DNA of 64,000 nt from Minisyncoccota bacterium (GTDB taxonomy: Bacteria; Patescibacteriota; Minisyncoccia; Phycocordibacterales; XYD1-FULL-46-19): NCBI GenBank assembly GCA_041663165.1, contig JBAZRF010000005.1, positions 502 to 64,501 of the forward strand, given 5' to 3'. The position numbers and the translations under genes were made by a program. A model generated the notes under the pieces. That model saw only the letters and a list, made by a program, of their open reading frames with translations. It searched no databases and was not told where the DNA came from. Positions 2,639 to 35,023 of this stretch are shown piece by piece. Position 1 is the stretch's first letter; each line of letters begins with the position of its first letter.

Positions 2639-4996
2639 ATGGCCAAAAAACAAAAAATTGCGCGAAAAATCATCAAAAAGGTCAAATCCGAGAAGAAAGT
2701 TTCTCTCACGGTTAAACAGATTCAAAAACGTGATGGGGTGAGAGTGCCTTATGATGAACAAAAGATCGTGAGCGCGATTGGCAAGGCGATGAAAGCGGCC
2801 GGCGAGGGGGGTTTGGCCGATGCCGAAAGGGTAGCTCGCTCGGTTCAGGCGGAGCTATTGCGCATTTGTTTGGCCAAGGGGGCTAAGACGAGCTCTGACT
2901 GTGTTCCCGCCGTCGAAGATATTCAGGATGTGGTAGAAAAACAACTTATTTTTCATCAATTTGCCACTACGGCCAAAAGCTACATTCTCTATCGCGAAAA
3001 ACGAACCGAGTTACGGCGCGAACGAGGCGAAGTCCCCACCAAGGTCCGTGAATTGGCCGCTGAAAGTAAAAAATATTTTCAAAACGATTTATCTGAATTT
3101 ATATATTATCGTTCTTACTCGCGTTGGATCGACGAGGAGAATCGTCGCGAAACCTGGGTAGAATCGGTTGACCGTTACCTCTCTTTCATGAAAGAGAACT
3201 TGGGCAATAAACTTAAGGAAACCGAATATGAGGAGTTGCGAGCAGCGATGCTCGCTCAAAGAGTGATGCCCTCGATGCGTCTAATGTGGAGTGCTGGGGC
3301 GGCGGCTCGGCGGACCAACGTTACCGGCTATAATTGCACCTATATGGCTCCAACTTCTTTTCAGGATTTGGCGGAAATTATGTATCTATCGATGTCGGGT
3401 TGTGGTGTTGGTTTTTCGGTTGAGAGTCAGACGGCTCAACAATTCCCAATCATTCAGCGGCAGAATGGTAAAATAAGAAAAACTCACGTTGTTGATGATA
3501 GTCGCGAAGGTTGGTGTGATGCCTTGGTTATTGGTTTGAAGACGTGGTTTGGCGGCGAGGACATTGAATTTGATTATTCACAATTACGACCAGCTGGCGC
3601 ACGCCTTAAAACAATGGGTGGGCGATCTTCGGGACCCGAACCCCTTATTGCTTTGATGCAATTTACCCGTAGCAAGATTCTCAGCCGTCAAAGCAAGCGT
3701 TTACGCAATATCGATTTACACGATATTATTTGCAAAATCGGAGAAGTCGTTGTCTCTGGTGGTGTGCGCCGAACGGCGATGATTTCATTGTCTGATCTCG
3801 ACGATTATGAAATTCAGCATGCCAAGGATGGTCAGTTTTATATGACCGAACCACAACGCGGTTTGGCTAATAATTCGGCCGTTTTTAACGAAAAACCATC
3901 TTCGGCCGAATTTTTGTCAGAATGGATTTCGCTGATGAAAAGCGGTTCGGGCGAGCGAGGAATTTTTAACCGCGGTTCGTTGCAAAAACAATTGCCGAAG
4001 CGCCGTTGGGAAAAATTTGAAAAAGACGCCCCGACTTGTGGCATGAATCCATGCGGCGAAATTGTACTCAAGTCCAAACAATTTTGTAATTTAACTGAAG
4101 TGGTGGCGCGGGCCGGCGATACCGAACAAGACTTGCTCGATAAAGCCCGTCTGGCAGCAATTTTAGGCACTTATCAAGCTAGCCTAACCCATTTCCCTTA
4201 TCTCTCGGAAGAGTGCAAAGAAAATTGTGAAGAGGAGGCTCTGCTGGGCGTTTCGATTACTGGCCAATGGGACTGTAAAACTGTGCGCAATCCGGAAATT
4301 ATGCGCAAAATGAAAGACGAGGCTGTCCGGGTTAACAAAGAATATGCTAAGCGCTTTGGCGTTAATCGAGCAACCGCCGTGACCTGTGTTAAACCTTCTG
4401 GCACTGTCTCTCAGCTCGTTGATTCGTCCTCGGGTATGCACCCGCGACATTCTCGTTATTATGTCCGGCGTATTCGCATTTCAGCCACGGACGCGCTTTT
4501 CAAGATGATGAAAGATCAGGGCTGTACCTATTATCCAGAAGTTGGCCAGACCATGGATAGTGCTAACACCTTTGTTCTTGAATTTCCAGTTAAAGCGCCT
4601 GAAAATTCTATCTATAAGGATGATCAAACCGCGATTGAACAATTAGAGTATTGGAAGATGGTTAAAGAGAATTATACTGAACATAATCCATCGGTGACAA
4701 TCTCAATCGGCGAAGATGAATGGGTCGCGGTGGCTGATTGGCTCTATAAAAATTGGGATATTATCGGCGGCCTTTCCTTCCTGCCGCGCTCGAATCATGT
4801 TTATAAATTAGCGCCTTATGAAGAGGTTGCTAAGGAGCGTTATGATGAGATGGTTAAGAATTTCCCAGAACTCGATTTTTCGAAGATCGTACTCTATGAA
4901 CAAGACGATCAAACTCAGGGTTCGAAAGAATTGGCCTGTTCATCGGGTGTCTGTGAAATCGATATGGCACCGACAAGCGAAAAAGAGAAGAAATAG
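2639..4996 (+). CDS. nrdJ: Class II (adenosylcobalamin-dependent, monomeric NrdJ/RTPR-type) ribonucleotide reductase with an N-terminal ATP-cone.
   Basis: An ATP-cone is visible at 'VKQIQKRDGVRVPYDEQKIVSAIGKAMKAAG'. The protein is 785 aa with a C-terminal CxxxxC pair ('CSSGVCEI'), as in L. leichmannii RTPR. It has no NrdD glycyl-radical/Zn-ribbon tail. Confidence 0.55.
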   Translation: MAKKQKIARKIIKKVKSEKKVSLTVKQIQKRDGVRVPYDEQKIVSAIGKAMKAAGEGGLADAERVARSVQAELLRICLAKGAKTSSDCVPAVEDIQDVVEKQLIFHQFATTAKSYILYREKRTELRRERGEVPTKVRELAAESKKYFQNDLSEFIYYRSYSRWIDEENRRETWVESVDRYLSFMKENLGNKLKETEYEELRAAMLAQRVMPSMRLMWSAGAAARRTNVTGYNCTYMAPTSFQDLAEIMYLSMSGCGVGFSVESQTAQQFPIIQRQNGKIRKTHVVDDSREGWCDALVIGLKTWFGGEDIEFDYSQLRPAGARLKTMGGRSSGPEPLIALMQFTRSKILSRQSKRLRNIDLHDIICKIGEVVVSGGVRRTAMISLSDLDDYEIQHAKDGQFYMTEPQRGLANNSAVFNEKPSSAEFLSEWISLMKSGSGERGIFNRGSLQKQLPKRRWEKFEKDAPTCGMNPCGEIVLKSKQFCNLTEVVARAGDTEQDLLDKARLAAILGTYQASLTHFPYLSEECKENCEEEALLGVSITGQWDCKTVRNPEIMRKMKDEAVRVNKEYAKRFGVNRATAVTCVKPSGTVSQLVDSSSGMHPRHSRYYVRRIRISATDALFKMMKDQGCTYYPEVGQTMDSANTFVLEFPVKAPENSIYKDDQTAIEQLEYWKMVKENYTEHNPSVTISIGEDEWVAVADWLYKNWDIIGGLSFLPRSNHVYKLAPYEEVAKERYDEMVKNFPELDFSKIVLYEQDDQTQGSKELACSSGVCEIDMAPTSEKEKK

Positions 4997-5051: not shown

Positions 5052-5352
5052 AGCTGGCCAGTAGGCAATTGCTCTGTATCGCAAGATATGGGGAGGAAAG
5101 TCCGAACACTCCTCTGTTTCGGCAGAGAGCATGGTAGCGGGTAACGCCCGCCTGGCGCAAGCCACGAGGTGCGAACAGAAACGACCCGGTTTAGTCCGGC
5201 TGAAACGTGCTAAATCCTTACCTGGGTGCAAGGCCGTGCCCCGAGAGAAATCGAGGGGAGTGCCGCTTGAGGCTAACAGTAATGTTGGTCCCAGATAAAT
5301 GATTGCCCTCCGCCAGTTGGCGGAACAGAATTCGGCTTATCGCTGGCCAGCT
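5052..5352 (+). ncRNA. rnpB: RNase P RNA (bacterial type A-like, compact, about 300 nt).
   Basis: The universal motif 'GGGAGGAAAGTCCGAACAC' is at 5092-5110 and 'ACAGAAACGACCCGG' follows. The 5' stretch 'agctggccag' (5052-5061) pairs with the 3' stretch 'ctggccagct' (5343-5352) to form a P1 helix. The region is GC-rich relative to flanking DNA and has no plausible ORF. Confidence 0.85.
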
Positions 5353-5359
5353 AACAAAA

Positions 5360-18669: not shown

Positions 18670-19869
18670 TTATTTGAGATTTAAATTACCATCGGCTTTG
18701 AAAGTGTTAGATTTTTGGGACTTGCCAGCCAACAAGCGCAAGCCGGCGGAGAGGGCAATCATGGTGGCGTTATCGGTTGAGTAAGATAGCTCAGGGATAA
18801 GTAATTTTAAATTATTGACGCTGGCCATTTTGCTTAAAGCCTCACGCAAGGCGGTATTAGCAATAACCCCGCCACCAGCAATAATGGTTTTGGCCTTGAA
18901 TTTTTGGCCGGCCGATAAAGTTTTAGTCACCAGCACTTCGATGGCGGCCTGTTGAAACTCGTAGGCAATCTCGGCCTTTATTTTTTCGTCAAATTTATTG
19001 GCTTGTTTTAATTTTTGCACCAAATAAAGTACTGCGGTTTTAAGACCCGAAAAAGAAAAATCAAAATCGCCAGAATGGAGCATTGGCCTGGGTAATCTGA
19101 ACTGAGAGGCCTCGCCTCTCAGTTGGGAGTTAGGGTTAACTAAGAGGCGAGGCCTCTCAGTGCTTATTGTTGCCGCTAGTTTAGAAATCTCTGGTCCGCC
19201 CGGATAGGGGAGGTCCAGGATTCGTGCCACTTTATCAAACGCTTCGCCGACTGCGTCATCGCGAGTTCGGCCGATAATTTTATATTTCAGCCAATCTTTC
19301 GATAAAACCAACTCGGTATGCCCGCCGCTAACGATTAAAGAAATGATGGGGAAGGCCACTTTTTGCGGTGTTGCGAGCGAAGCCAGGATATGTCCCTCCA
19401 GATGATTAACCGGGTAAAGTGGTTTATCCCACACCAGCGCCAACGCTTTGGCAAAATTAATACCCACCCACAGCGCCGGCTCCAAGCCTGGCCCCTTGGT
19501 GACGGCAATAGCGTCGATTTTTGGGATTTTTAATTTTGGAATTACGGCAAAAAATTGTTCCTTTAATTCGGGTTCTCGTTCTAAAATTTTATTTATCTTT
19601 TTTTCTATTTTTTCTTCAAACTTTTTCTCTTTGCCTTCTCCCTTACCGAAAGCTTCTCCTAGTGATTTAACCAAAATTGGCACCAAATTCTTGCCGTGTT
19701 CTCGTTTGGCGAGAGAAGGAACAACTCCGCCCCATTCCTGATGGATCTTAATTTGCGAGGAAATATTATGGGCAAGCACCTTAAAAACGGGCTTGGTGAG
19801 AGAGCCTTTAACGTCAACGATACTAATAGCGGTATCGTCGCAACTGGTTTCGATAGCCAAAATTTTCAT
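18670..19869 (-). CDS. tsaD: tRNA N6-adenosine threonylcarbamoyltransferase TsaD (Kae1/YgjD). It carries an in-frame insertion of about 20 aa encoded by a REP-like palindrome doublet.
   Basis: 'MKILAIETSCDDTAISIV', the 'HLEGH' metal motif, 'VSGGHTEL' and 'DFSFSGLKTAV' are present. The protein is 399 aa, against about 340 typical. The extra segment 'TERPRLLVNPNSQLRGEASQF' maps to 19101-19162. Confidence 0.85.
   Translation of the reverse strand: MKILAIETSCDDTAISIVDVKGSLTKPVFKVLAHNISSQIKIHQEWGGVVPSLAKREHGKNLVPILVKSLGEAFGKGEGKEKKFEEKIEKKINKILEREPELKEQFFAVIPKLKIPKIDAIAVTKGPGLEPALWVGINFAKALALVWDKPLYPVNHLEGHILASLATPQKVAFPIISLIVSGGHTELVLSKDWLKYKIIGRTRDDAVGEAFDKVARILDLPYPGGPEISKLAATISTERPRLLVNPNSQLRGEASQFRLPRPMLHSGDFDFSFSGLKTAVLYLVQKLKQANKFDEKIKAEIAYEFQQAAIEVLVTKTLSAGQKFKAKTIIAGGGVIANTALREALSKMASVNNLKLLIPELSYSTDNATMIALSAGLRLLAGKSQKSNTFKADGNLNLK
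19101..19162. repeat. REP-like palindromic element doublet (two inverted copies of core GAGAGGC-CTC/GAG-GCCTCTC separated by 16 nt), located inside the tsaD coding sequence.
   Basis: 'ctgagaggcctcgcctctcag' (19102-19122) and 'ctaagaggcgaggcctctcag' (19140-19160) are visible. The same core, 'ttagaggc(ctc/gag)gcctctaa', recurs at 39256-39280, 39745-39773 and 39961-39989. Confidence 0.75.
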
Positions 19870-20415
19870 AATCTAGCTTAGACAATATAAAGCAAAATGG
19901 GTCAAATTACAAACATAACAAAAGGCGCCTTGGCATATTCTACTGGAGGTAGACTGCTTTGGCGCCGTTCTCTTTTGTCTGGGTGTCTCCCTTTGTCGTT
20001 CCTAGGATCGAGCAAAGTTTGACTGTGAACTTCAGCATGTGCCCGTTCGGTATAGTGACCGGAGTCGGGCTAGGTGTTGCATTGCTTCGGGGGAAACCCG
20101 AAGCGTAAGCGGGGTACTACACGGTACTACGGATGCCATTCTGTGGACATCATCACAATAGAGACTTGTTCGTTGCTCCGCGTAAAAACGGAGAGTCTTG
20201 CGGTATTGCCCTGCTACACTTGGTCTGGTCCTGGGCCCTACCTAGGAAAACCTAAGCCAAACCCTACACGCAGACACAATGCTGTTCCTCAAACATCAAA
20301 GAACTTAATACACTGTATCTGGCTCAAGTATAGCAGATAACGGATAGCTTGTCAAGTATTTTTTATTAAAATCAACCACTTCACCAAAATATGGCTTAAA
20401 ATAAGGGTAAATTGG

Positions 20416-21759
20416 CTACTTCAAAATTGGTTTTAGCCTTTCCCCTAATCCTCGGTAGATTCTGACAAGCAAAAACGTCAATAAGGCGATTCCGCTTGGG
20501 ATTAATGAGGTTAAAGGATTGTCAGTTACAAATTTTAGTATAAGGCCAAGGACATAAACAATCGTACCGACAATAAGGAAGGTATTAATCTCAAAAGCGC
20601 TGGGTTTAAACAAAAAAGAAATAAGAAGGGCCGCGCCAATAACTGAAATCAATGAAATAAGAGCAAAGACTGACGACAAAAAGGAAAATAAATATAAAGA
20701 GGCTCCGGCCGAAATAATTATGCCGAGGATTGTGAAGAGCCTTGTTTTTCTAATGACATTTTCCTTTTTGGTTTTTTTCATTTTCGCTACCAGAACACCA
20801 AGAGCGAAAGCGCTAGAATCGATTGTGCCCATAAAGGCGGCAATTAGAGAGATAATAAGCAATGATCCTAGCCATCCTGGCAGGGCCGCCAAAACCCCTT
20901 CGCTAAATAGATTAGAGGGGTCAGCAATAATCCCAGCAAATTTGAAGTTTATTCCCAAATAGGCAATTGCTCCGGCGACTAAGGCGAGCAGGATAAAAGC
21001 AAAAATCAGTCCTTTTTTTAGGGATTGCGCATCTTTGCTAGCGAAGATTCTTTGAAAACTCTCGGCTTGTCCTAGTAGGCTTAAAAATTGTAATAGCGCC
21101 AGACCGATGGCGAACCAAAATTGAGAAGGATCAAGAGCGGTTGGTATTTTGGCAATTGTAAAATTGACCGGGAAAATAAAAATAGTCAAGACGATTGGTA
21201 ATATCAGAAGTCCTTGAAAGATATCAGTTTTAATGGAGGCCTTAAAACCACCAAACCAGAGATAGACACAAACCACTCCCGTGGTGAGTAAGAGAGCCGG
21301 TATTTTTTCGATGTGGAGCAGGGTGGAGAAGAGGCCGGTGTTAACGAACATTTGTAAAATTAAAAAAAGTGATAGTCCGCCACATAAAATTAAGTTAACA
21401 AAGATTTTACTTAATGATCCATACTGGAGACCAAAGTAATCGCCAATCGAAAGAAGATTGTACTCCTTTTGCAAAGAAGAAAGTCGCTTTTTGTAAAAAA
21501 AGTACAGAACCACAAGGGCCATACCGGCTCCAACAAAGGCCATTAAATACCAAAAGCCATAAAGATAAGCAAAGGTAACACCCAGTACAAAATTATAACC
21601 GGTTAAGAGAGAAGCAAATGTCGTCCAAGTGGACTCGGTCGCCGTGAGATTTTTGGCGCTATTAATGTACTCATCAACGGTTTCTCGACGAGAGGATCGC
21701 CAGGTAATAATGGCCAGTATGCCTAAATACAAAATTAGATAAAATACAGTAATATTCAT
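20416..21759 (-). CDS. Sodium:solute symporter (SSS) family-like transporter.
   Basis: This is a 447-aa polytopic membrane protein (about 12 TM) with an SSS-like N-terminal region. The assignment is tentative. Confidence 0.4.
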   Translation of the reverse strand: MNITVFYLILYLGILAIITWRSSRRETVDEYINSAKNLTATESTWTTFASLLTGYNFVLGVTFAYLYGFWYLMAFVGAGMALVVLYFFYKKRLSSLQKEYNLLSIGDYFGLQYGSLSKIFVNLILCGGLSLFLILQMFVNTGLFSTLLHIEKIPALLLTTGVVCVYLWFGGFKASIKTDIFQGLLILPIVLTIFIFPVNFTIAKIPTALDPSQFWFAIGLALLQFLSLLGQAESFQRIFASKDAQSLKKGLIFAFILLALVAGAIAYLGINFKFAGIIADPSNLFSEGVLAALPGWLGSLLIISLIAAFMGTIDSSAFALGVLVAKMKKTKKENVIRKTRLFTILGIIISAGASLYLFSFLSSVFALISLISVIGAALLISFLFKPSAFEINTFLIVGTIVYVLGLILKFVTDNPLTSLIPSGIALLTFLLVRIYRGLGERLKPILK

Positions 21760-21844
21760 AGTTCCTATTTAATCACACGGGCTAGATAAATGGGGTGAAA
21801 AACAGAGGGGGAGATATAGCCTTATCTTATAAACATATTTTAGC

Positions 21845-21875
21845 TACTAATTGACAAATTATTTGTCAATTAGTA
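21845..21875. promoter_or_regulatory. Perfect 31-bp palindrome TACTAATTGACAAAT-T-ATTTGTCAATTAGTA in a divergent promoter; candidate operator of the adjacent wHTH regulator.
   Basis: The 15-bp arms were read directly from the sequence, and each arm contains TTGACA. It lies between the minus-strand transporter and the plus-strand HTH gene. Confidence 0.5.
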
Positions 21876-21888
21876 TATTTAGATAATT

Positions 21889-22587
21889 ATGATCGGATTA
21901 GACAATTTAGACAATAAAATCTTGAAATTGCTTGGGGAAGAACCCAGTCACCCCTCGGAGATGGCTAGAGAATTGGGGATACTAAGAACAACGATTCATT
22001 ATCGTTTAGGTCGCCTGGCCGAGGCTGGATTAGCAAAAAAGACCATTGTTGGTCGAAAATCTATTTGGCGTCCGGTTTATAAGAATGAGCATAATAAGAG
22101 TTATTACCAGGCCTATTTAGGTCGAGACATTGTCCAAGCCTATAGACAACTTCTCAACTTACCGCCCGACTCAACCATTTTCGCCGTTCAGGGAAGTCTT
22201 GCCGCCAAGAGTGAGTTTGAGAGTTTGCCAACACTCTTTATTAAAGAAGCTCACCGGATATTCAAAAGAAAAAAGATCGTCATGAGAGGGATTTTAAATG
22301 AGAGAGCCTTAGATTTGTTTGCTAAATTAAAAAAAGATCTCGTTAAATCTCATGTTGGCCGAACCCAAAGCATCAAGATGATTTCTGGTAATAAGTTGAG
22401 TGCTCACGGCGAAATAATGTCTAGCGAAAAGATTTTATTACTATCTAACCCAAAGTCGCGTTTTGTTTTAGTGATAAAAGATCCTGGCGTAACAAAAATC
22501 GTCAACGACATGTTTAAACTACTGTTCGAGCTACTTGACGGGAATAAGACCTTTGATCTAAATAGTTATCTAAGTTCAAGATCCTGA
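21889..22587 (+). CDS. Winged-helix (TrmB/MarR-like) transcriptional regulator.
   Basis: The N-terminus 'ILKLLGEEPSHPSEMARELGILRTTIHYRLGRLAEAGLAKK' forms a wHTH. Confidence 0.4.
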   Translation: MIGLDNLDNKILKLLGEEPSHPSEMARELGILRTTIHYRLGRLAEAGLAKKTIVGRKSIWRPVYKNEHNKSYYQAYLGRDIVQAYRQLLNLPPDSTIFAVQGSLAAKSEFESLPTLFIKEAHRIFKRKKIVMRGILNERALDLFAKLKKDLVKSHVGRTQSIKMISGNKLSAHGEIMSSEKILLLSNPKSRFVLVIKDPGVTKIVNDMFKLLFELLDGNKTFDLNSYLSSRS

Positions 22588-23169
22588 TTCTTTTTCGGCC
22601 ACGAGATAATAACGAAAATCGATCGGTTTGAGCTCAACTTTAAAATTATTGGTCGAAAATAGGCTGGCGAGAGAATTTGGGGTATGAAAATGACTGCCCA
22701 TTCGTAGAACTTTTTCAAAGGCCTTAACTAATCGCCCTTTGCCTCTTGTCGGATCATATTCTTCCATCACAATTTGGCCCTTGGTTTTTAAAACTCGCGC
22801 CATTTCTTTGATTGCTTGGTTTTGATTAGGAAAATGATGAAAAGCGTCAACTAAAATTATTTTATCAAAACGATTATCGGTAAAAGGCAAATTCTCGGCG
22901 CTGGCTAAAACGCAAGTCAAACCTTTTTTTTCATGACATTCTTTAAGCATCCCGGTCGAGATGTCGACCACGGTGATTTGGGCGACCTTACCAATTAAAA
23001 ATTTAGCAATTCGCCCGCTCCCGCCACCAAGGTCTAAGACTTGATCAGTCGGCGCAAAATCGGCCAATTCGGCTAGGTGCCCAAAAGTCTTTTTATCACT
23101 AGTGGCCAGATAGTCGTAAATGGGGGCGGTAACATCAAAAAAGCTTTTCATTTTATTTTGCAGATACAA
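22576..23169 (-). CDS. Class I SAM-dependent methyltransferase.
   Basis: 'VLDLGGGSGRIAKFL' is a glycine-rich motif I, and 'KIILVDAFHHF' is motif-II-like. Confidence 0.7.
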   Translation of the reverse strand: MYLQNKMKSFFDVTAPIYDYLATSDKKTFGHLAELADFAPTDQVLDLGGGSGRIAKFLIGKVAQITVVDISTGMLKECHEKKGLTCVLASAENLPFTDNRFDKIILVDAFHHFPNQNQAIKEMARVLKTKGQIVMEEYDPTRGKGRLVKAFEKVLRMGSHFHTPNSLASLFSTNNFKVELKPIDFRYYLVAEKESGS

Positions 23170-24409
23170 TCGAAGTGAACGATGGTTTGATTATCCGACT
23201 ACTTTTAACTAAATAATAAAAACCACCGAGACAAATTAGCATCAATAAAAGGATCGATCCTCGATATTGGATATTCTCACCAAAGTTTTTGAGTAAATAA
23301 AAAGTAAAAAGCCAAACCAACGGCCCCAGAACAGAAGCCGCACGCTCAAAGATCGTAAACAGGCTAAAAAACTCCCCTTGTCTATTTTCGGGCGAAATTT
23401 CAGAATACACCGCTCTTGCCAGAGAGAATAAAAGTCCATAAGCAATACCACTTAAGGCTAAAACAACAAACACGAACGAGGGTATTTGCGGAATAAGGGC
23501 GATAATGCCAAAACAAAACGCATAAAAAACGCTCGATACCCCCAGCGCTTTTTCTTTGTCTTTTAATTTGTAAACAAGCCTGTTTGCCATAAAGCCACCC
23601 ACGACCGTGAAGATTAGACCAGTCATGCCGGCATAGGTTACTAATTTGTCTGAAAAATCAAATACTTTTGTTATGTAAAGCGTTAAATATAACTGAAAAG
23701 TAAGTATCGAATCGGCCAGCAATGAATAACCGATTAAAAAAAGAAAGATTCTCTTTTCGGAAAGTATTGTTTTAAGAAATATTTTGTAAGAAAAGCCCAT
23801 TTTCTCTGCATCGTTTTTTAAATCCTTTTGCTTGAAAAAGGGAATTGAAATTAATGCGAACAATACACCACCGAGGAAAAGCGCCAGCGGCTTTCCACTC
23901 AAACCAATGATCACGAGTGATGAACCCATTATTGGTCCAATTATCCCAAGAGCAAAAGCATTTCCTAATTGTCCTAGACCAAGACCCACCCCTGATACCT
24001 TGGCATTGTTATCAACGCTGGTTATACTTCGCAGCATTGCTGAATAAAAGACATATGAACCCTGAAAACAAACTTGAAATAGAATATAAAAGAAGGAGAG
24101 TCCCAATAATGCCGACACGTTAAAAATATCTATGCTTTGTATTAAAAAGGCGAGAACAAATAATGACACCACCATTAAAACGGAAGCGATTTTTATGAAG
24201 AATATTCTCTTGCCCGTTCGATCAGAGTAGGATCCTAAGTAGGGTAATATAAGCAACAATAATACCGTCGCGACTGACGCCGACACTCCAACCCAAACAT
24301 TGCTCGCGCCTCTCTCCGCCAGCATGAGGGGATAATAAAAAATCAGAACAATTGAAGCAAAGGAGTTTGCAAAATCATAAAGATACCAAAGTCGTACAGC
24401 TTTTTTCAT
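23153..24409 (-). CDS. MFS transporter.
   Basis: The protein is 418 aa with about 12 TM segments, and the loop 'GSYSDRTGKR' resembles the MFS motif A. Confidence 0.55.
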   Translation of the reverse strand: MKKAVRLWYLYDFANSFASIVLIFYYPLMLAERGASNVWVGVSASVATVLLLLILPYLGSYSDRTGKRIFFIKIASVLMVVSLFVLAFLIQSIDIFNVSALLGLSFFYILFQVCFQGSYVFYSAMLRSITSVDNNAKVSGVGLGLGQLGNAFALGIIGPIMGSSLVIIGLSGKPLALFLGGVLFALISIPFFKQKDLKNDAEKMGFSYKIFLKTILSEKRIFLFLIGYSLLADSILTFQLYLTLYITKVFDFSDKLVTYAGMTGLIFTVVGGFMANRLVYKLKDKEKALGVSSVFYAFCFGIIALIPQIPSFVFVVLALSGIAYGLLFSLARAVYSEISPENRQGEFFSLFTIFERAASVLGPLVWLFTFYLLKNFGENIQYRGSILLLMLICLGGFYYLVKSSRIIKPSFTSIVSAK

Positions 24410-24425
24410 ACAAATTCCGTTCGAG

Positions 24426-24498
24426 TGGGCGATACAGGATTCGAACCTGTGACATCCACAACGTCAATGTGGCGCTCTACCAACTGAGCTAACCGCCC
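24426..24498 (-). tRNA. tRNA-Val (anticodon GAC).
   Basis: The reverse complement 'GGGCGGTTAGCTCAGTTGGTAGAGCGCCACATTGACGTTGTGGATGTCACAGGTTCGAATCCTGTATCGCCCA' has anticodon stem ccaca/tgtgg and loop TTGACGT. Confidence 0.75.
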
Positions 24499-25181
24499 AA
24501 ATTATCTGCAATTTCCTGACAAAACTTTCTGCCAATATATACTAATTTTCTTTGTATGGCAACATTGCCGCAACTAATTATACAGACGCCTTTATAATTA
24601 GGATAAGTCTTTGTACCAAGCGTTCTTTTGTCAATTGAGACTTTCCTAAACCTATCAGTCGGCATCTCTAATTTTTTTGCCCAGTATTTTTTCAAAAGCT
24701 CTGGGTCCTGGTCGGCCCGTAAGTGAAGGTAAAAAGATATATTTTCCATCTTAAGATTGTAGACAAATTTCATTACTTTTAAAAAGAATTTTAAAATTAG
24801 CGGGTCTGAATTACCCAAACTCGTTGCTGATCCAGCTTTGTACCCTTCGCCAAGATAAAGCATTGCCAGGCTTAATTCTAATATTTCTCGGTCTTTGTCG
24901 ATTTTATTGAGCGTTTTATCTGCTTCAATTTCGGCGGTTCTCAGTCTGTCTTCTTTTTGCCCGTTGTGCCACTTCGTCGCTCCTTTCCTTGCTTTGATCA
25001 AAGCTCTTTCATGTTTTCGCTTCAATCTTTTCTTTTGTAACGAAGTAAGTTTTATATCTCTGAACCAGCCACTCAAAGTGGAGCGGGGAATGTCCAGAGT
25101 TTTTTCGACATCCCTAATAGATTTGCCTTTTTCTCTTAGTGAGATTGCCTTTGACTTTAACTCGAACCACCTTGATTTCAT
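24489..25181 (-). CDS. HTH-containing protein with a possible single LAGLIDADG-like motif ('LAMLYLGEGYK'); a free-standing homing-endonuclease-like gene next to tRNA-Val.
   Basis: The N-terminal HTH 'GKSIRDVEKTLDIPRSTLSGWFRD' and the stretch 'ILELSLAMLYLGEGY' resemble LAGLIDADG/GxxEGEG variants. The assignment is tentative. Confidence 0.3.
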   Translation of the reverse strand: MKSRWFELKSKAISLREKGKSIRDVEKTLDIPRSTLSGWFRDIKLTSLQKKRLKRKHERALIKARKGATKWHNGQKEDRLRTAEIEADKTLNKIDKDREILELSLAMLYLGEGYKAGSATSLGNSDPLILKFFLKVMKFVYNLKMENISFYLHLRADQDPELLKKYWAKKLEMPTDRFRKVSIDKRTLGTKTYPNYKGVCIISCGNVAIQRKLVYIGRKFCQEIADNLGG

Positions 25182-26027: not shown

Positions 26028-26060
26028 TTTATCCAGTGCTTATCCACAGGGTTATCCTTG
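26028..26060. promoter_or_regulatory. Array of three DnaA-box-like 9-mers at about 11-bp spacing (TTTATCCAG, TTATCCACA [a perfect consensus match], TTATCCTTG), directly upstream of a DnaA-like gene.
   Basis: 'tttatccagtgcttatccacagggttatccttgg' was read directly. TTATCCACA at 26040-26048 equals the E. coli DnaA-box consensus. Confidence 0.55.
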
Positions 26061-26169: not shown

Positions 26170-27819
26170 GTGTTGATCATGGAGACCGATGCTAAGACGG
26201 TTGGTGGCGCCGATGCCACTATCGGTCTGGCTCCGGTCCAGGTCGATCATCTCGCGATTGTTCGAAGTGAGTTCAGCCGGAAAATGCACGAGCGGGTCAG
26301 AACCAATCTTGGCGATCAATCGTATGATCTCTGGATTGTCAGCGGGGGAGTAACGTTCAGTTTTTACGAGGATCAACTCTCAGAAAGACTGGCTGGAGTC
26401 GTCTATACGGCGAGTTCCTTTGCTTCTGGCTGGCTCGGTGACCCCAAAAAGGTTTATCTAGCCGCTATAACCACTGCGTTCAGAGAGCAAGAAATCTTCC
26501 ACTGGAAGTGCGTGGAGGATGGGGCACTCTGTGAAGTGGCCAAGAAAGAAGTTCTGCCGGTAAGACAGTGTTTACCGAATCTTGAGGCCGAGAAGCCCGA
26601 GCCGGTAGTAAGTAACAAGAAGGTGCCGAAGTTCTGCCCTGGCAGGCCACCTGTTATCGGAGTTAGTTTCGAAGACTTTGTCCCCGAAACCTCGGCTAAC
26701 AAAATGGCGCTGGAGGCAGCCCAGGAGCTTACCAAGAGCCGAAAAGCAGCTAGGTTTACCAGCGCGATTTTTCACGGACCTAGCGAGTCCGGAAAGAAAC
26801 ACCTGGTTCTCTCGACTCTTCGGGCGATGTTGGAGGCTTATCCAAGACTGGATGTCTTCTACTTGGATGGAGACGGGTTCGGTACCCTGTTCCCGAGTTT
26901 CTTCTGGACAGGAAAGGGTGGCCAAACTCAAGCCAACGACGCGGATCTCAAGATCTTCAAGGACCGTCTCTACGCCGCCCAAGTTCTCGTTATCCCCGAC
27001 CTTGACCTTGTTGGCCTTAGGCATGACGGGAGCAAGAGACAAATGGCTCGGGCCATAAATCTGGTTCGCCAGAATGGAGGCCGAGTCCTGATCTCTCTGC
27101 TCCAGCCGCTGCCGGAAAGTGAGGCTGAGGGTATCGACCTGTTTGGACCAGAGCTCTACCGGGTGATAAAAGAGATAAGAAATTTCCGAATGGAAAGAAT
27201 TTCTCGGGAATCTTATCCCCTAGTTGCCCAAGCGTTTCTGGCTAAGCAGTTCATCTCGGCTAAAACACCGGGAGAGAGGGCAATTGTCGATTGGATAGTG
27301 AGGAGGACAAAAAGCCTCACTGTGCTAAAGAATCGACTTGAAACCCTTGTTGAAGAGCATAACAGGAGGGCGACGGATGGCCGCCGTGTCACCCTGCCGG
27401 AGGTGCAAGAACTGTTCAAGTTCCCGCCAAACGCCGACGATCTCATTGCCCTAGTACTGGAGGTCGGGAAACTTCAGCGGAAGGTCCGTCGTGGCGAGGT
27501 CGAATATAAGCGAGTTTTAGATATCGCTTGCTACCTTGCTTCTGAAGTTGTCGGTCTCGACCGGGAGAAGGTTGCTCAGTGGTTCTATCCGGACACCATC
27601 TGGGCAAGTTGCGATGTCAGCGGTGGCCTAATGCGTATCGAGAAGCTTCTGGAGACCTCAGAGGCCCGCTTTCCTCTCGGCATTTTGGCAAGAGAACTCT
27701 TGCGCCGGTTCTCCGTTCCTGAAGGGAAAAGAGAATTCTGGGCCAGCAGGCTAAAGGAGTGGACTCTCTCTGAGTCGGGCAAGAGCAAGGGTCGTCGTCG
27801 CTGTCGAGACAAGTTTTAG
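26170..27819 (+). CDS. Divergent DnaA-like AAA+ protein (DnaA domain III and IV homolog with a non-canonical Walker A, GKK, and an unrelated N-terminal domain of about 170 aa), located in a high-GC island.
   Basis: 'SFEDFVPETSANKMALEAAQEL...FHGPSESGKKHLVLS' parallels DnaA 'TFDNFVxGxSNxLAxAAA...LFLYGGxGLGKTHLL'. 'VLVIPDLDLV' is Walker B. 'KRQMARAINLVRQNGGRVLISLLQPLPE' parallels DnaA 'KERTQEEFFHTFNAL...QIVLTSDRPP'. The C-terminal 'KRVLDIACYLASEVVGLDREKVAQWF...SGGLMRIEKLLE' parallels the DnaA domain IV HTH. Confidence 0.55.
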   Translation: MLIMETDAKTVGGADATIGLAPVQVDHLAIVRSEFSRKMHERVRTNLGDQSYDLWIVSGGVTFSFYEDQLSERLAGVVYTASSFASGWLGDPKKVYLAAITTAFREQEIFHWKCVEDGALCEVAKKEVLPVRQCLPNLEAEKPEPVVSNKKVPKFCPGRPPVIGVSFEDFVPETSANKMALEAAQELTKSRKAARFTSAIFHGPSESGKKHLVLSTLRAMLEAYPRLDVFYLDGDGFGTLFPSFFWTGKGGQTQANDADLKIFKDRLYAAQVLVIPDLDLVGLRHDGSKRQMARAINLVRQNGGRVLISLLQPLPESEAEGIDLFGPELYRVIKEIRNFRMERISRESYPLVAQAFLAKQFISAKTPGERAIVDWIVRRTKSLTVLKNRLETLVEEHNRRATDGRRVTLPEVQELFKFPPNADDLIALVLEVGKLQRKVRRGEVEYKRVLDIACYLASEVVGLDREKVAQWFYPDTIWASCDVSGGLMRIEKLLETSEARFPLGILARELLRRFSVPEGKREFWASRLKEWTLSESGKSKGRRRCRDKF

Positions 27820-34396: not shown

Positions 34397-35023
34397 CCAT
34401 GAGACCCGCCCACGACAACGAGCCTAAATCGCTCGCGCGAGGCGGGCCTGTTGTTTTTAATAAAAAATTTGAAATGGCAAACCAGCGGCGCGCTTGCGCG
34501 CCGCTGGTGGATACGGTCATCTCAACCAGATACAGTCTTTCTCCCCGATTCGATACAAACGTACCGTTCGCCAAGCCCAAACCCTCCCGAGAGATTCTGT
34601 CCAGAGCACGAGAATACCCCATGCTCTTTTGATGGCGGTCTTGCGACAACCGGCCCATATGTACCTAGTCTTTTGGCGGATGAAAAGACCAGGTTTGCCG
34701 GGGTCTCGCGAATAACAGCCTGCCGAGCAAACGACCCGATATCTTTTCATCCTAAAACTCCCTTGTTGTTGGTCTAGCTCAATACTAATTATATTCTAAA
34801 TAATTGTCCAATTCCTCATCCTGTTTAAAACTGCAAGGTTGAACCTTGCGGTAGCAGTCAAGCGAGGCCCGTTCAGTTAAACAACCTCGCGTAGCCACGG
34901 CCAGCATGGTTTTCGCCATCATTTATTGTTCGCAGAACTATGGCGAAATGGCCGTCGCGGAGCGTAAGAAAACCATTCGCGGGAATGATTTTCTGTGTTG
35001 TTTAACTGAACGTGGCCGAGCGC

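Follow-up and report, generated by a model that had tools for sequence, protein, structure and literature searches.

The non-coding gap of 546 bases (positions 19870-20415) that separates the gene for a 447-aa membrane transporter (20416-21759) from tsaD (18670-19869), both on the minus strand, very probably holds, in this uncultured Patescibacteria genome, a separate minus-strand gene, whose product would be a tightly folded RNA, about 405 bases long, that belongs to no known family. This judgement is made from the sequence of the window, as the whole analysed stretch of 64 kb is called here, and from that of related loci. A preliminary description had proposed a GC-rich large non-coding RNA at this place. 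The position and the two neighbours are as it claimed, and the RNA candidate is supported in a refined form, in which the predicted transcript lies on the minus strand and runs from 20320 to about 19915 instead of filling the whole 535 bp. The G+C content originally given, about 52-55%, was slightly overstated: the block is indeed richer than its flanks (about 0.41), with values of 0.505-0.515 in 200-nt windows and 0.500 for the predicted transcript, the figure for the whole window being 0.452. The complete explanation that we favour, an independent minus-strand gene for a stable structured RNA of about 405 nt that represents a small undescribed family in one Patescibacteria (Paceibacteria-type) clade, has in our estimate a little better than an even chance of being correct. 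As far as the compared sequences go, the RNA is lineage-restricted, with a few close relatives as its only other carriers.

The folding of the block is far better than that of shuffled sequence. Positions 19900-20340 fold with z-scores of -3.8 (plus strand) and -5.3 (minus strand), none of 100 shuffles being as stable, and the predicted transcript of about 405 nt has a minimum free energy of -140.9 kcal/mol (z = -3.7). The RNAs of all homologous or same-slot loci have z-scores between -3.6 and -4.2, and the predicted folds are multi-branched. Two hairpins quoted earlier are present in the sequence, namely gcttcgggggaaacccgaagc at 20085-20105 and the nested helices agagact...ctccg-cgtaaaaa-cggag...agtcttg at 20161-20200. 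The direct repeat cggtactac that had been reported is exact as the 8-mer ggtactac (20113-20120 and 20124-20131), but not as the full 9-mer, and repeat tools found no meaningful repeats in the block (Tandem Repeats Finder returned 0 rows, and a repeat finder one weak 14-nt pair).

A sigma-70-type promoter on the minus strand (20327-20355) consists of TTGACA, a 17-bp spacer and TATACT with an extended -10 element (TGc); with TG preceding the -10 hexamer it scores 11/12, and the promoter scan found no plus-strand promoter in the block. The spacer sequence differs between the related loci L083, L086 and L112, in all of which the elements CTTGACAA and TCTGCTAT are kept. Further upstream, a conserved 22-bp box, CCCTTATTTTAAGCCATATTTT, composed of two 11-bp half-repeats (20386-20407, minus strand), ends 30 bp ahead of the -35 hexamer. 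Within the 64 kb of the window it has a single occurrence, even when four mismatches are allowed; L083, L112 and L144 carry the same sequence, and L086 a version with two changes. By an exact-pattern scan the box was found in 64 metagenome loci, where the distances that separate it from the promoters downstream are phased (6, 15-21, 29-31 and 40-43 bp), and one viral contig carries it three times. The box is probably a binding site for a transcription activator. Phage and plasmid collections gave no match to the block, and scanning viral contigs with a promoter-plus-start pattern returned one coincidental AT-rich phage promoter only. The block lies near a DnaA-like gene and the 22-bp box is found beside DnaA-box clusters at other loci; a replication origin at the block was rejected, as DnaA boxes are not clustered there and the GC skew does not turn.

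The start of the transcript is predicted at A20320, with the sequence AGAUACAG, and its end, likewise predicted, at a U-run. A conserved start AGAUA(C/A)(A/G)G, 6-7 nt past the -10 hexamer, is shared by the window, L083, L086 and L112. The first 50 nt can form a hairpin, P1 (20271-20320), with an outer stem closing from +1/+2 and a boxA-like block in the inner stem; its fold has an energy of -20.1 kcal/mol and a z-score of -4.35. A strand test gave -17.5 kcal/mol for the sense sequence versus -2.5 for the antisense sequence, and the assignment of the RNA to the minus strand is based on the formation of P1 on that strand only, together with the lack of a promoter on the plus strand. Next to P1, a second hairpin, P2 (20233-20264; GGGUUUG-GCUUAGG-UUUU-CCUAGGU-A-GGGCCC), appears in the minimum-energy folds, and its core GCCUAG/CUAGGUARG is common to the window, L083 and L086. 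The central body (19967-20232) contains about six further hairpins, including both of those quoted earlier.

At the 3' side an intrinsic terminator (19911-19966) is formed by a two-tier hairpin (19924-19966) followed by UUUUGUUAUGUUU. The hairpin has a GGCGCC outer stem, a GCA/UGC middle stem and a UCUAC/GUAGA inner stem, and folds with -20.3 kcal/mol (z = -3.3); a consensus terminator scan with a loop limit of 8 nt missed it because the loop is too long. The same architecture is found in L083 and L086, where the middle stem is invariant and the inner stem is changed at every pair, yet still paired, and a terminator hairpin with U-run was present in 5/5 RNAs examined. Beyond this boundary, outside the RNA, tsaD has a separate promoter (TTGTAA, 17 bp, TATATT; 19884-19912, minus strand), of which the block is also present in L159, a relative that lacks the RNA. 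The RNA unit thus appears to be independent of tsaD, since that gene has its own promoter even where the RNA is absent, and since the L112 homologue is not located beside tsaD.

The boxA-like block GUUCUUUGA (20296-20304, minus strand) is positioned at +17. The pattern GYTCTTTGA occurs once in the window and about 1.6 occurrences are expected by chance, so the weight of this element rests on its position and conservation. The window, L083, L086 and L112 have GYUCUUUG at positions between +7 and +17, as does L116, whose RNA body is unrelated, and this is the sole sequence block kept across lineages. In Firmicutes and Mollicutes, boxA reads GUUCUUUGAAAAC. The published consensus GYTCTTTAANA is gamma-proteobacterial (PMC5725501). 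As compared to the published consensus, the block has a G instead of an A at position 8, and it is predicted to be paired inside the P1 stem. We infer that it is a candidate NusB/NusE antitermination site.

Taken together, these elements suggest a mechanism in which the near-consensus extended -10 promoter behind the 22-bp box would start transcription at about A20320, after which the first 50 nt would fold into P1 and close the 5' end, followed by P2 and some six more hairpins. The two-tier GC-rich hairpin and the U-run would end the transcript about 45 bp before the promoter of tsaD itself. A paired 5' end and a terminator hairpin may well give a long-lived RNA. The GYUCUUUG block in P1 could act as the boxA of an rRNA leader does, by recruiting NusB/NusE, and this recruitment might allow RNA polymerase to resist Rho along an untranslated and strongly folding RNA. 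The RNA itself would be the product; acting in trans, it would most likely serve as a scaffold or decoy that binds protein, and would not be a regulator of tsaD. Its two ends can be envisaged as constrained 'handles', with a hairpin-rich central body that is free to turn over.

Same-slot counterparts upstream of tsaD occur in relatives with TsaD proteins that are 72-89% identical, and the preliminary description's suggestion to look for conservation and covariation was borne out by these homologues and by compensatory changes in P1, in the 3' hairpin and in L083/L086 pairs. Homologous units occupy the tsaD slot in L083/L084/L118 and L086/L087/L158, and the L112 homologue adjoins a tRNA-Asn gene. 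The same-slot counterparts share the 22-bp box and the promoter, the RNAs of L083 and L086 also P1, P2 and the two-tier terminator hairpin, and RNA lengths among the loci range from about 320 to 520 nt. Evidence for purifying selection comes from L083 and L086, of which the RNAs are 77% identical versus 45% at four-fold degenerate sites of the adjacent tsaD; among 61 predicted pairs in their alignment there are four double and four single compensatory changes, and none is broken. In the outer stem of P1, 7/7 pairs are kept in the window, L083, L086 and L112, with two double changes (C-G to A-U and A-U to G-C, in L083), two single compensatory changes and none broken. Since MAFFT misaligned P1 and the 3' hairpin, the pairs there were counted by script in a structural alignment made manually; the covariation has a base of 3-4 sequences, partly aligned by hand, and any two terminators that are aligned by structure appear to covary.

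The central body behaves differently from the ends. Making up the middle two-thirds of the RNA, it is not alignable with that of L083/L086, L112 or L144, local alignment scores being equal to those of shuffled sequence. As the neutral distance between L144 and the window equals that between L083 and L086, this lack of alignment fits weak constraint or replacement as well as a variable body. Between the window and L083/L086, TsaD is 77-78% identical, and the identity of the four-fold sites, at 37-38%, is near saturation. The close relatives L085, L088, L090 and L159 lack the RNA in the tsaD slot, which implies that it is dispensable or located elsewhere in those genomes, and in the nearest relative, L081, tsaD is preceded by a different GC-rich leader that continues directly into the gene. 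Among GTDB species representatives, the best tsaD relatives are at most 57% identical and neither blastn nor nhmmer detected similarity to the block; the gaps between the last tRNA and tsaD contain protein genes there, and the Rfam matches in them are tRNAs only. A search for a core motif shared by eight box-driven RNAs gave 8-mer support no better than shuffles, except for the 5' GYTCTTTG. No conserved partner protein was found beside the RNA: an ORF of 263-265 aa that adjoins it in L083/L086 has no counterpart in the window or the other loci.

That the block encodes a protein, either the 88-aa product of a plus-strand ORF or a small minus-strand peptide, is extremely improbable. The sole 88-aa ORF that had been noted does exist (20074-20340, antisense to the RNA) and is open over its length, and a comparison with 5.8 billion proteins yielded a single match, P0121, which is 64% identical over 68% of it. 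This protein aligns to two frames of the window (20052-20319) with a stop codon between them, so the two are similar as DNA, without conservation of the ORF; the ORF of P0121 is in fact a closer relative of the RNA body. None of the five ORFs, including this one, has a Pfam match at E<=1, and a convincing protein homologue, which the preliminary description would have taken as a refutation, was not found. Minus-strand ORFs are not longer than 37 aa, indels between L083 and L086 shift the reading frame, and the plus-strand ORF runs through the opposite-strand promoter and P1; we judge it spurious.

Known RNA families were considered in the same way. The block and its homologues in L083, L086, L112 and L144 were searched with all 4227 models of Rfam 15 at E<=10, the check that the preliminary description had recommended, and the whole window at gathering thresholds. 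Inside the RNA coordinates no family matched at E<=10, save a 17-bit antisense chance match (Xist_exon1). The earlier impression by eye that the block is not RNase P RNA, tmRNA or SRP RNA agrees with this outcome. RNase P RNA, which is recognised by a match to the class A or B covariance model with the conserved GGAAAGUCC core, is located elsewhere in this genome, at 5053-5355 (140.5 bits); the only match in the block, to class B with 12.5 bits, is a spurious fragment within the AT-rich promoter region. For tmRNA, ARAGORN, including permuted forms, found none in the window and no clan member matched the block and its four homologues at E<=10; the 3' end is a terminator hairpin and not a T-arm with CCA, and a tag reading frame is lacking. 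The same five sequences gave no match at E<=10 to the SRP clan, whose helix 8 has a GNRA loop and conserved AGCA/GGAA internal loops and for which also no helix-8 motif conserved among homologues was seen by eye, to 6S RNA, a rod of about 180 nt with a large central bubble for which the multi-branched folds are unsuitable as well, or to OLE, ROOL, GOLLD, raiA, HEARO and ARRPOF. A riboswitch, T-box or ribosomal-protein leader was rejected on the lack of a cis-regulatory match and on the conserved tsaD promoter between the terminator and the ATG; a CRISPR or TIGR guide array because the block has neither tandem nor interspersed repeats and no Cas or Tas (Nop-domain) gene nearby; and a CsrB-like sponge because GGA occurs 5 times versus 6.7 expected in the window RNA, with no repeated loop motif. 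A vestigial rRNA operon leader and trailer, an idea prompted by the boxA-like block, fits poorly with the signs of purifying selection and the compensatory changes of L083/L086, and no match to an rRNA fragment was found. In the literature, we did not find an RNA of such kind described for Patescibacteria.

The rival that deserves most attention, unlikely as we consider it, is that of a transcribed relic. The slot between tRNA-Val and tsaD would then be a recombination or integration hotspot, in which leftover DNA of a decayed mobile element or rearrangement happens to have a strong promoter and a terminator, with a functionless RNA and hairpins that are a by-product. Much of the genomic context is in line with this: the slot is empty or otherwise filled in close relatives and has received four additional genes in the window, the unit of L112 has a tRNA-Asn gene on one side and, on the other, a 37-nt copy of the 3' end of that tRNA, which is the footprint of integration at a tRNA gene, the box is present in triplicate in a viral contig, bodies cannot be aligned between lineages, and several assemblies break just upstream of tsaD. 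A relic would not be expected, however, to show the excess of RNA identity over neutral identity in L083/L086, with changes that are compensatory, nor to keep a z-score of about -4, a consensus promoter and a strong terminator in every version, and P1, P2 and the two-tier terminator have persisted between the window and L083/L086 over a divergence that brought the four-fold sites close to saturation.

It is quite improbable that the RNA is a housekeeping RNA too diverged for the models, in which case an RNA polymerase-binding RNA of the 6S/Ms1 type would be the likeliest, and tmRNA or SRP RNA less so. RNAs of the 6S type keep their shape and not their sequence, a strong promoter and stable ends would suit an abundant RNA, and the window has no recognisable 6S RNA, SRP RNA or tmRNA despite carrying RNase P RNA and 13 tRNAs; with a window of only 64 kb, however, their absence says little. 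Against this idea stand the negative searches at E<=10 for these families in the window and four homologues, the failure of ARAGORN to detect a tRNA-like domain or tag frame, the lack of a 3' CCA or T-arm, folds that are multi-branched instead of a rod with a central bubble, the wide range of lengths, and the several close relatives that have a slot without the RNA. Still less credible, and very improbable indeed, is a cis-acting leader or attenuator of tsaD-valS, with a terminator that is read through under some condition. In the window, L083 and L144 the RNA directly precedes tsaD in the same orientation, and in L081 a different GC-rich leader continues into the gene, but a conserved tsaD promoter is present between the terminator and the start codon, also in relatives without the RNA, a 105-aa ORF separates the RNA from tsaD in L086, the unit is unlinked to tsaD in L112, and no riboswitch or T-box matched.

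A wider interpretation can be formulated, which we regard as distinctly unlikely: the 22-bp activator box, the consensus promoter and the boxA-like 5' hairpin could be a dedicated expression module for fast-evolving, cassette-like structured RNAs, with conserved 5' and 3' 'handles' and a hypervariable body that close relatives exchange, beside tRNA genes. Proposed examples are the window RNA, the L083/L086 type, L112, L144, and the unrelated RNAs of L116/L120 and L094. Were this true, it would point to an RNA-level accessory system, e.g. with a decoy or defence function, or to a new ribonucleoprotein, and Nus-factor antitermination would extend to orphan non-coding RNAs. To our knowledge, the non-coding RNAs of Patescibacteria (Candidate Phyla Radiation), which have tiny genomes, are almost unstudied beyond rRNA, tRNA and RNase P RNA. 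The region offers a concrete candidate, with predicted ends, strand, promoter and terminator and the first signs of structural selection, that no family model recognises. If it is transcribed, it would be highly attractive to establish whether GYUCUUUG acts as a boxA, with Nus factors protecting and chaperoning an orphan RNA, which protein binds the widespread 22-bp box at this and many other promoters, and why the body is replaced between close relatives while the ends are kept. If it is not transcribed as proposed, the region is a relic in a recombination hotspot, and of local interest only.

It is useful to compare the predicted RNA with systems that are better understood. The rRNA leader with boxA, on which NusB, NusE, NusA and NusG, as well as SuhB, act, and the boxA of other transcripts resemble it in the strong promoter with an upstream (here putative) protein-binding site, in a GYUCUUU within 20 nt of the start and in a long, untranslated and strongly folding transcript; here, however, no rRNA follows, position 8 is a G and the block is predicted to be paired in P1. 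ROOL and GOLLD tend to lie near tRNA genes and in mobile DNA. Together with OLE, raiA and HEARO they share with the window RNA a length of several hundred nucleotides, a GC content that is high for the genome, many hairpins and their own promoter and terminator, but their cores are conserved across many genera, whereas for the window RNA conservation is restricted to the ends and the distribution to a few close relatives. The 6S and Ms1 RNAs are abundant, stable and non-essential, and drift in sequence while the structure stays; the window RNA differs by the lack of a rod with central bubble, by a greater and more variable length and by its absence from some close relatives. With CsrB/RsmZ sponges it has in common a variable number of hairpins, a variable length, poor sequence conservation and an own promoter and terminator, but not the enrichment of GGA or a repeated loop motif. 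TIGR arrays, known from phages and parasitic bacteria and defined according to PMC12045711, end in a rho-independent terminator. Like these and CRISPR arrays, the RNA would combine a conserved leader with a variable and untranslated part that ends in a terminator, yet it has no repeats and no accompanying Cas or Tas gene. At the level of sequence, the locus has the marks of an independent bacterial small or non-coding RNA gene of generic type, as it combines a predicted promoter, a predicted terminator, the lack of a conserved ORF, conservation above the neutral level and compensatory changes.

The two minus-strand genes tsaD (18670-19869, downstream, followed by valS) and that of a 447-aa membrane transporter (20416-21759, upstream) are separated by a gap of 546 bp (19870-20415). 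The best-supported interpretation of this block is that it carries an independent, stable and structured non-coding RNA gene, predicted to represent a new, narrowly distributed family. Measured in 200-nt windows, its G+C content is 0.505-0.515, whereas the flanks have about 0.41 and the window as a whole 0.452. This confirms the enrichment noted in the preliminary description, although the 52-55% given there is slightly too high. Both hairpins quoted there and an 88-aa plus-strand ORF are present in the sequence, whereas only an 8-mer of the reported direct repeat recurs exactly, and repeat tools detect nothing meaningful. Compared with dinucleotide shuffles, the folding z-score is -3.8 for the plus strand and -5.3 for the minus strand, with 0 of 100 shuffles folding as well.

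A comparison of the block with all Rfam models, as had been advised, matched no known family. With Rfam 15 at gathering thresholds, the whole window yields RNase P RNA (5053-5355) and 13 tRNAs, with no match inside the block; at E<=10 the block gives just three chance fragments, and ARAGORN finds no tmRNA. The homologous RNAs of relatives are likewise without Rfam match. The RNase P RNA, on the plus strand, is itself short (303 nt versus a 367-position model), its alignment lacking large parts of two helices (by reading, the P12 and P15-17 regions); for small-genome bacteria there are reports of reduced RNase P RNAs.

The predicted gene lies on the minus strand. Its promoter (TTGACA, 17-bp spacer, TGcTATACT; 20355-20327) scores 11/12 and has an extended -10, while no plus-strand promoter was found in the block. 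Since AGAUACAG starts 6-7 nt past the -10 both here and in three homologues, the predicted transcript start is A20320. The first 50 nt form a hairpin, P1 (-20.1 kcal/mol, z = -4.35), with several G-U pairs; because it is stable on the minus strand (-17.5 kcal/mol) and not on the complement (only -2.5 kcal/mol), the minus strand was assigned. A second hairpin, P2 (20264-20233), follows, and about six more precede a terminator, which consists of a two-tier GC-rich hairpin (19966-19924, -20.3 kcal/mol) with UUUUGUUAUGUUU after it. A consensus scan overlooked this terminator because the hairpin loop exceeds the length limit of the scan. This gives a predicted RNA length of about 405 nt (20320 to ~19915; G+C 0.50); the RNA's paired 5' end and terminator would be expected to stabilise it. 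The promoter of tsaD itself (19912-19884, minus) lies some 10 bp beyond the terminator.

A protein-coding function of the block is very improbable. Its five plus-strand ORFs have no Pfam match, and its minus-strand ORFs do not exceed 37 aa. The preliminary description had named a convincing protein homologue of the 88-aa ORF as evidence against an RNA, but a search of 5.8 billion proteins with this ORF retrieved only P0121, encoded on ENA contigs of at most 537 nt, and this alignment is split: residues 40-102 align to one window frame (20140-20319) and residues 7-39 to another, with a stop codon inside. As two frames are needed and one contains a stop, the similarity exists at the DNA level, and the alignment shows that the RNA body of the window has a closer homologue. 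Indels between the homologues in loci L083 and L086 also break the frame.

The source organism is a Patescibacteria metagenome-assembled genome, whose TsaD is found in public databases. The nearest GTDB species representatives by TsaD are Paceibacteria-type genomes of at most 57% identity, in which no nucleotide similarity to the block was detected. Closer relatives (TsaD 72-89% identical) were reached via protein hits and contig look-ups, and further loci by a single exact-pattern scan of metagenome contigs with a 22-bp box that lies upstream of the RNA promoter. Between tRNA-Val and tsaD, homologous units occur in L083 (=L084, L118; ~320 nt), L086 (=L087, L158; ~460 nt) and L144 (=L148; ~420 nt); a unit of ~520 nt in L112 lies outside this slot and adjoins a tRNA-Asn gene. 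In L085, L088, L090 and L159 the RNA is missing and tRNA-Val directly abuts the tsaD promoter, L081 carries a GC-rich leader of another kind (L081 150-343), L089 a small RNA of ~140 nt (L089 ~1345-1485), and the window has four extra genes (20416-24409). The slot is thus a variable spot (compared over window 19870-24500), being empty or filled with RNA only, RNA plus ORF, another leader or another small RNA among close relatives. Assemblies break just 5' of tsaD in L082, L155 and the contigs of protein hit P0014.

All five loci (window, L083, L086, L112, L144) have the 22-bp box and promoter in common. The start sequence and the outer stem of P1 are kept in the first four of these, with 7/7 pairs in each; L083 carries the double changes C-G to A-U and A-U to G-C, and two further changes among the four sequences are one-sided. 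The window, L083 and L086 also share P2 and the two-tier terminator hairpin, whose GCA/UGC middle stem does not vary and whose inner 5-bp stem has all its pairs exchanged with pairing retained. In contrast, no alignment is possible between the central bodies of the window, L083/L086, L112 and L144, whose local scores equal those of shuffles, yet the folding z-score is -3.6 to -4.2 in every version. The sole pair alignable over the full RNA length is L083/L086. Their TsaD proteins have 89% identity and the four-fold degenerate sites 45%, which is near saturation, whereas the RNA shows 77% identity over 277 nt. Of 61 predicted pairs, 4 carry substitutions in both partners and 4 in one partner, and no pair is lost; differences are mostly in loops, and the indels keep no reading frame. 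This pattern is what purifying selection on a structured RNA is expected to leave, and the covariation in relatives that had been proposed as a check is found here, in P1 and in the terminator hairpin. The window and L144, with the same neutral distance (four-fold identity 45%, TsaD 83% identical), share no body sequence; in some lineages, therefore, the body has been replaced or its evolution proceeds in bursts.

A role as cis-regulator of tsaD is unlikely, since the tsaD promoter block (TTGWAATTTGACC...TATATTG) is kept with or without the RNA, an additional ORF separates RNA and tsaD in L086, and the L112 unit is not linked to tsaD. The tsaD mRNA appears leaderless or nearly so, the -10 ending 6-14 nt before the ATG with no evident Shine-Dalgarno sequence (window 19884-19869; L085 ~3975-4003; L090 ~2975-3003). 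The main rival explanation sees the block as a relic that lies in a recombination hotspot and is transcribed, which would agree with the patchy distribution and the turnover of the RNA body. The L112 unit is bracketed by a complete tRNA-Asn (2980-3052) and, ~770 bp downstream, a 37-nt copy of the tRNA 3' end (3823-3859, one mismatch), each followed by a terminator. The arrangement resembles what integration into a tRNA gene usually leaves behind, or an insertion in a second copy of the tRNA. In L083, L086 and L144, too, tRNA genes adjoin the unit. No integrase or other conserved protein lies beside the RNA among the loci compared, and phage and plasmid collections contain no similar DNA. Just upstream of the unit, L083 (2413-3204) and L086 (1862-2659) encode, between tRNA-Glu and a tRNA-Val in inverted orientation, a 263-265-aa protein without Pfam domain. 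The two versions are 52% identical, and neither the window nor any other locus compared has this protein.

Against a relic stand the selection signal and the fact that every version has kept a consensus promoter, strong structure and a strong terminator. The RNA may also be a diverged 6S/Ms1-like RNA, but nothing positive speaks in favour of this. The family is small and the evidence comes from few sequences; these support the predicted gene anatomy, strand and non-coding nature, conservation of both ends with compensatory change and, for one pair, purifying selection. Judged from sequence, the block is very probably a real and unclassified orphan structured bacterial RNA gene, in line with the large non-coding RNA of the preliminary description, to which strand, predicted ends and the lack of an Rfam family are now added. 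That it works in trans, as a scaffold or decoy that binds proteins, is a tentative and rather improbable suggestion.

The RNA also points to a wider set of box-driven unclassified RNAs in these genomes. The 22-bp box CCCTTATTTTAAGCCATATTTT (20386-20407, minus) occurs, exact with two degenerate positions, in 64 metagenome loci (L091-L154) of very different content: upstream of rpmA (L108, L153), near tRNA genes and near many protein genes. An IMG/VR viral contig (L157 1436-1518) has two full boxes and a third partial one within ~170 bp. Distances from box to -35 cluster at 6, 15-21, 29-31 and 40-43 bp, a helical phasing as expected of a putative transcription-activator site. Terminator-ended, box-driven non-coding RNAs are predicted in L116 (9899-10225, plus), L120 (1515-1794, minus) and L094 (~2010-2240, minus). 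These RNAs (~215-325 nt) have no Rfam match at E<=10 and all terminate in a hairpin with the inner part YGUC-GUGA-GAYR; L116 and L120 have the 3' 110 nt in common (UAGAGGRACC...CUCAGGAAAAACNGGCCGG...CCGUGGAACUGAA). At least one further RNA family, so far undescribed, seems to be represented by them. Within the window, a second unannotated intergenic block (34397-35023; 627 bp, G+C 0.50), also without Rfam match at E<=10, has a promoter-like site at 34810-34782 (minus) and a very strong hairpin with T-run (ccagcggcgcgc...gcgcgccgctgg) at ~34481-34508, and may encode another unclassified RNA. In L091/L127 and L106 the box adjoins DnaA-box clusters with an AT-rich stretch. The window has one perfect DnaA box (26040-26048) and shows neither a clear cluster of such boxes nor a turn in GC skew over its whole length. 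At the position of the 358-367-aa DnaA of L086 and L090 it encodes a protein of 549 aa (26170-27819, plus) that contains a Walker-A-like motif of the AAA+ type and may be an unusually long, diverged DnaA.

The only RNA sequence block kept across lineages lies in apical P1, at +10 to +17, and reads AAGUUCUUUGAUG in the window, AAGUUCUUUGUUA in L112, AUGCUCUUUGAGU in L083 and GGCUCUUUGAGU in L086; the L116 RNA, with the box promoter and an unrelated body, has a similar GCUCUUUC at +7. It occurs once in the window, versus 1.6 times by chance. Among known systems it resembles boxA, the NusB/NusE-binding signal in rRNA operon leaders. In Firmicutes and Mollicutes boxA is GUUCUUUGAAAAC, with which GTTCTTTGAAAA, from literature on mollicute 16S-23S spacer primers, agrees. 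The P1 block resembles the gamma-proteobacterial consensus GYTCTTTAANA (PMC5725501), which may not be that of this clade, and differs from it at position 8; it is also predicted to be paired. By analogy, the P1 block may function as a boxA, which on a long untranslated RNA would shield the transcript from Rho, to which such RNA is otherwise exposed. In the known systems, the antitermination complex also acts as an RNA-folding chaperone.
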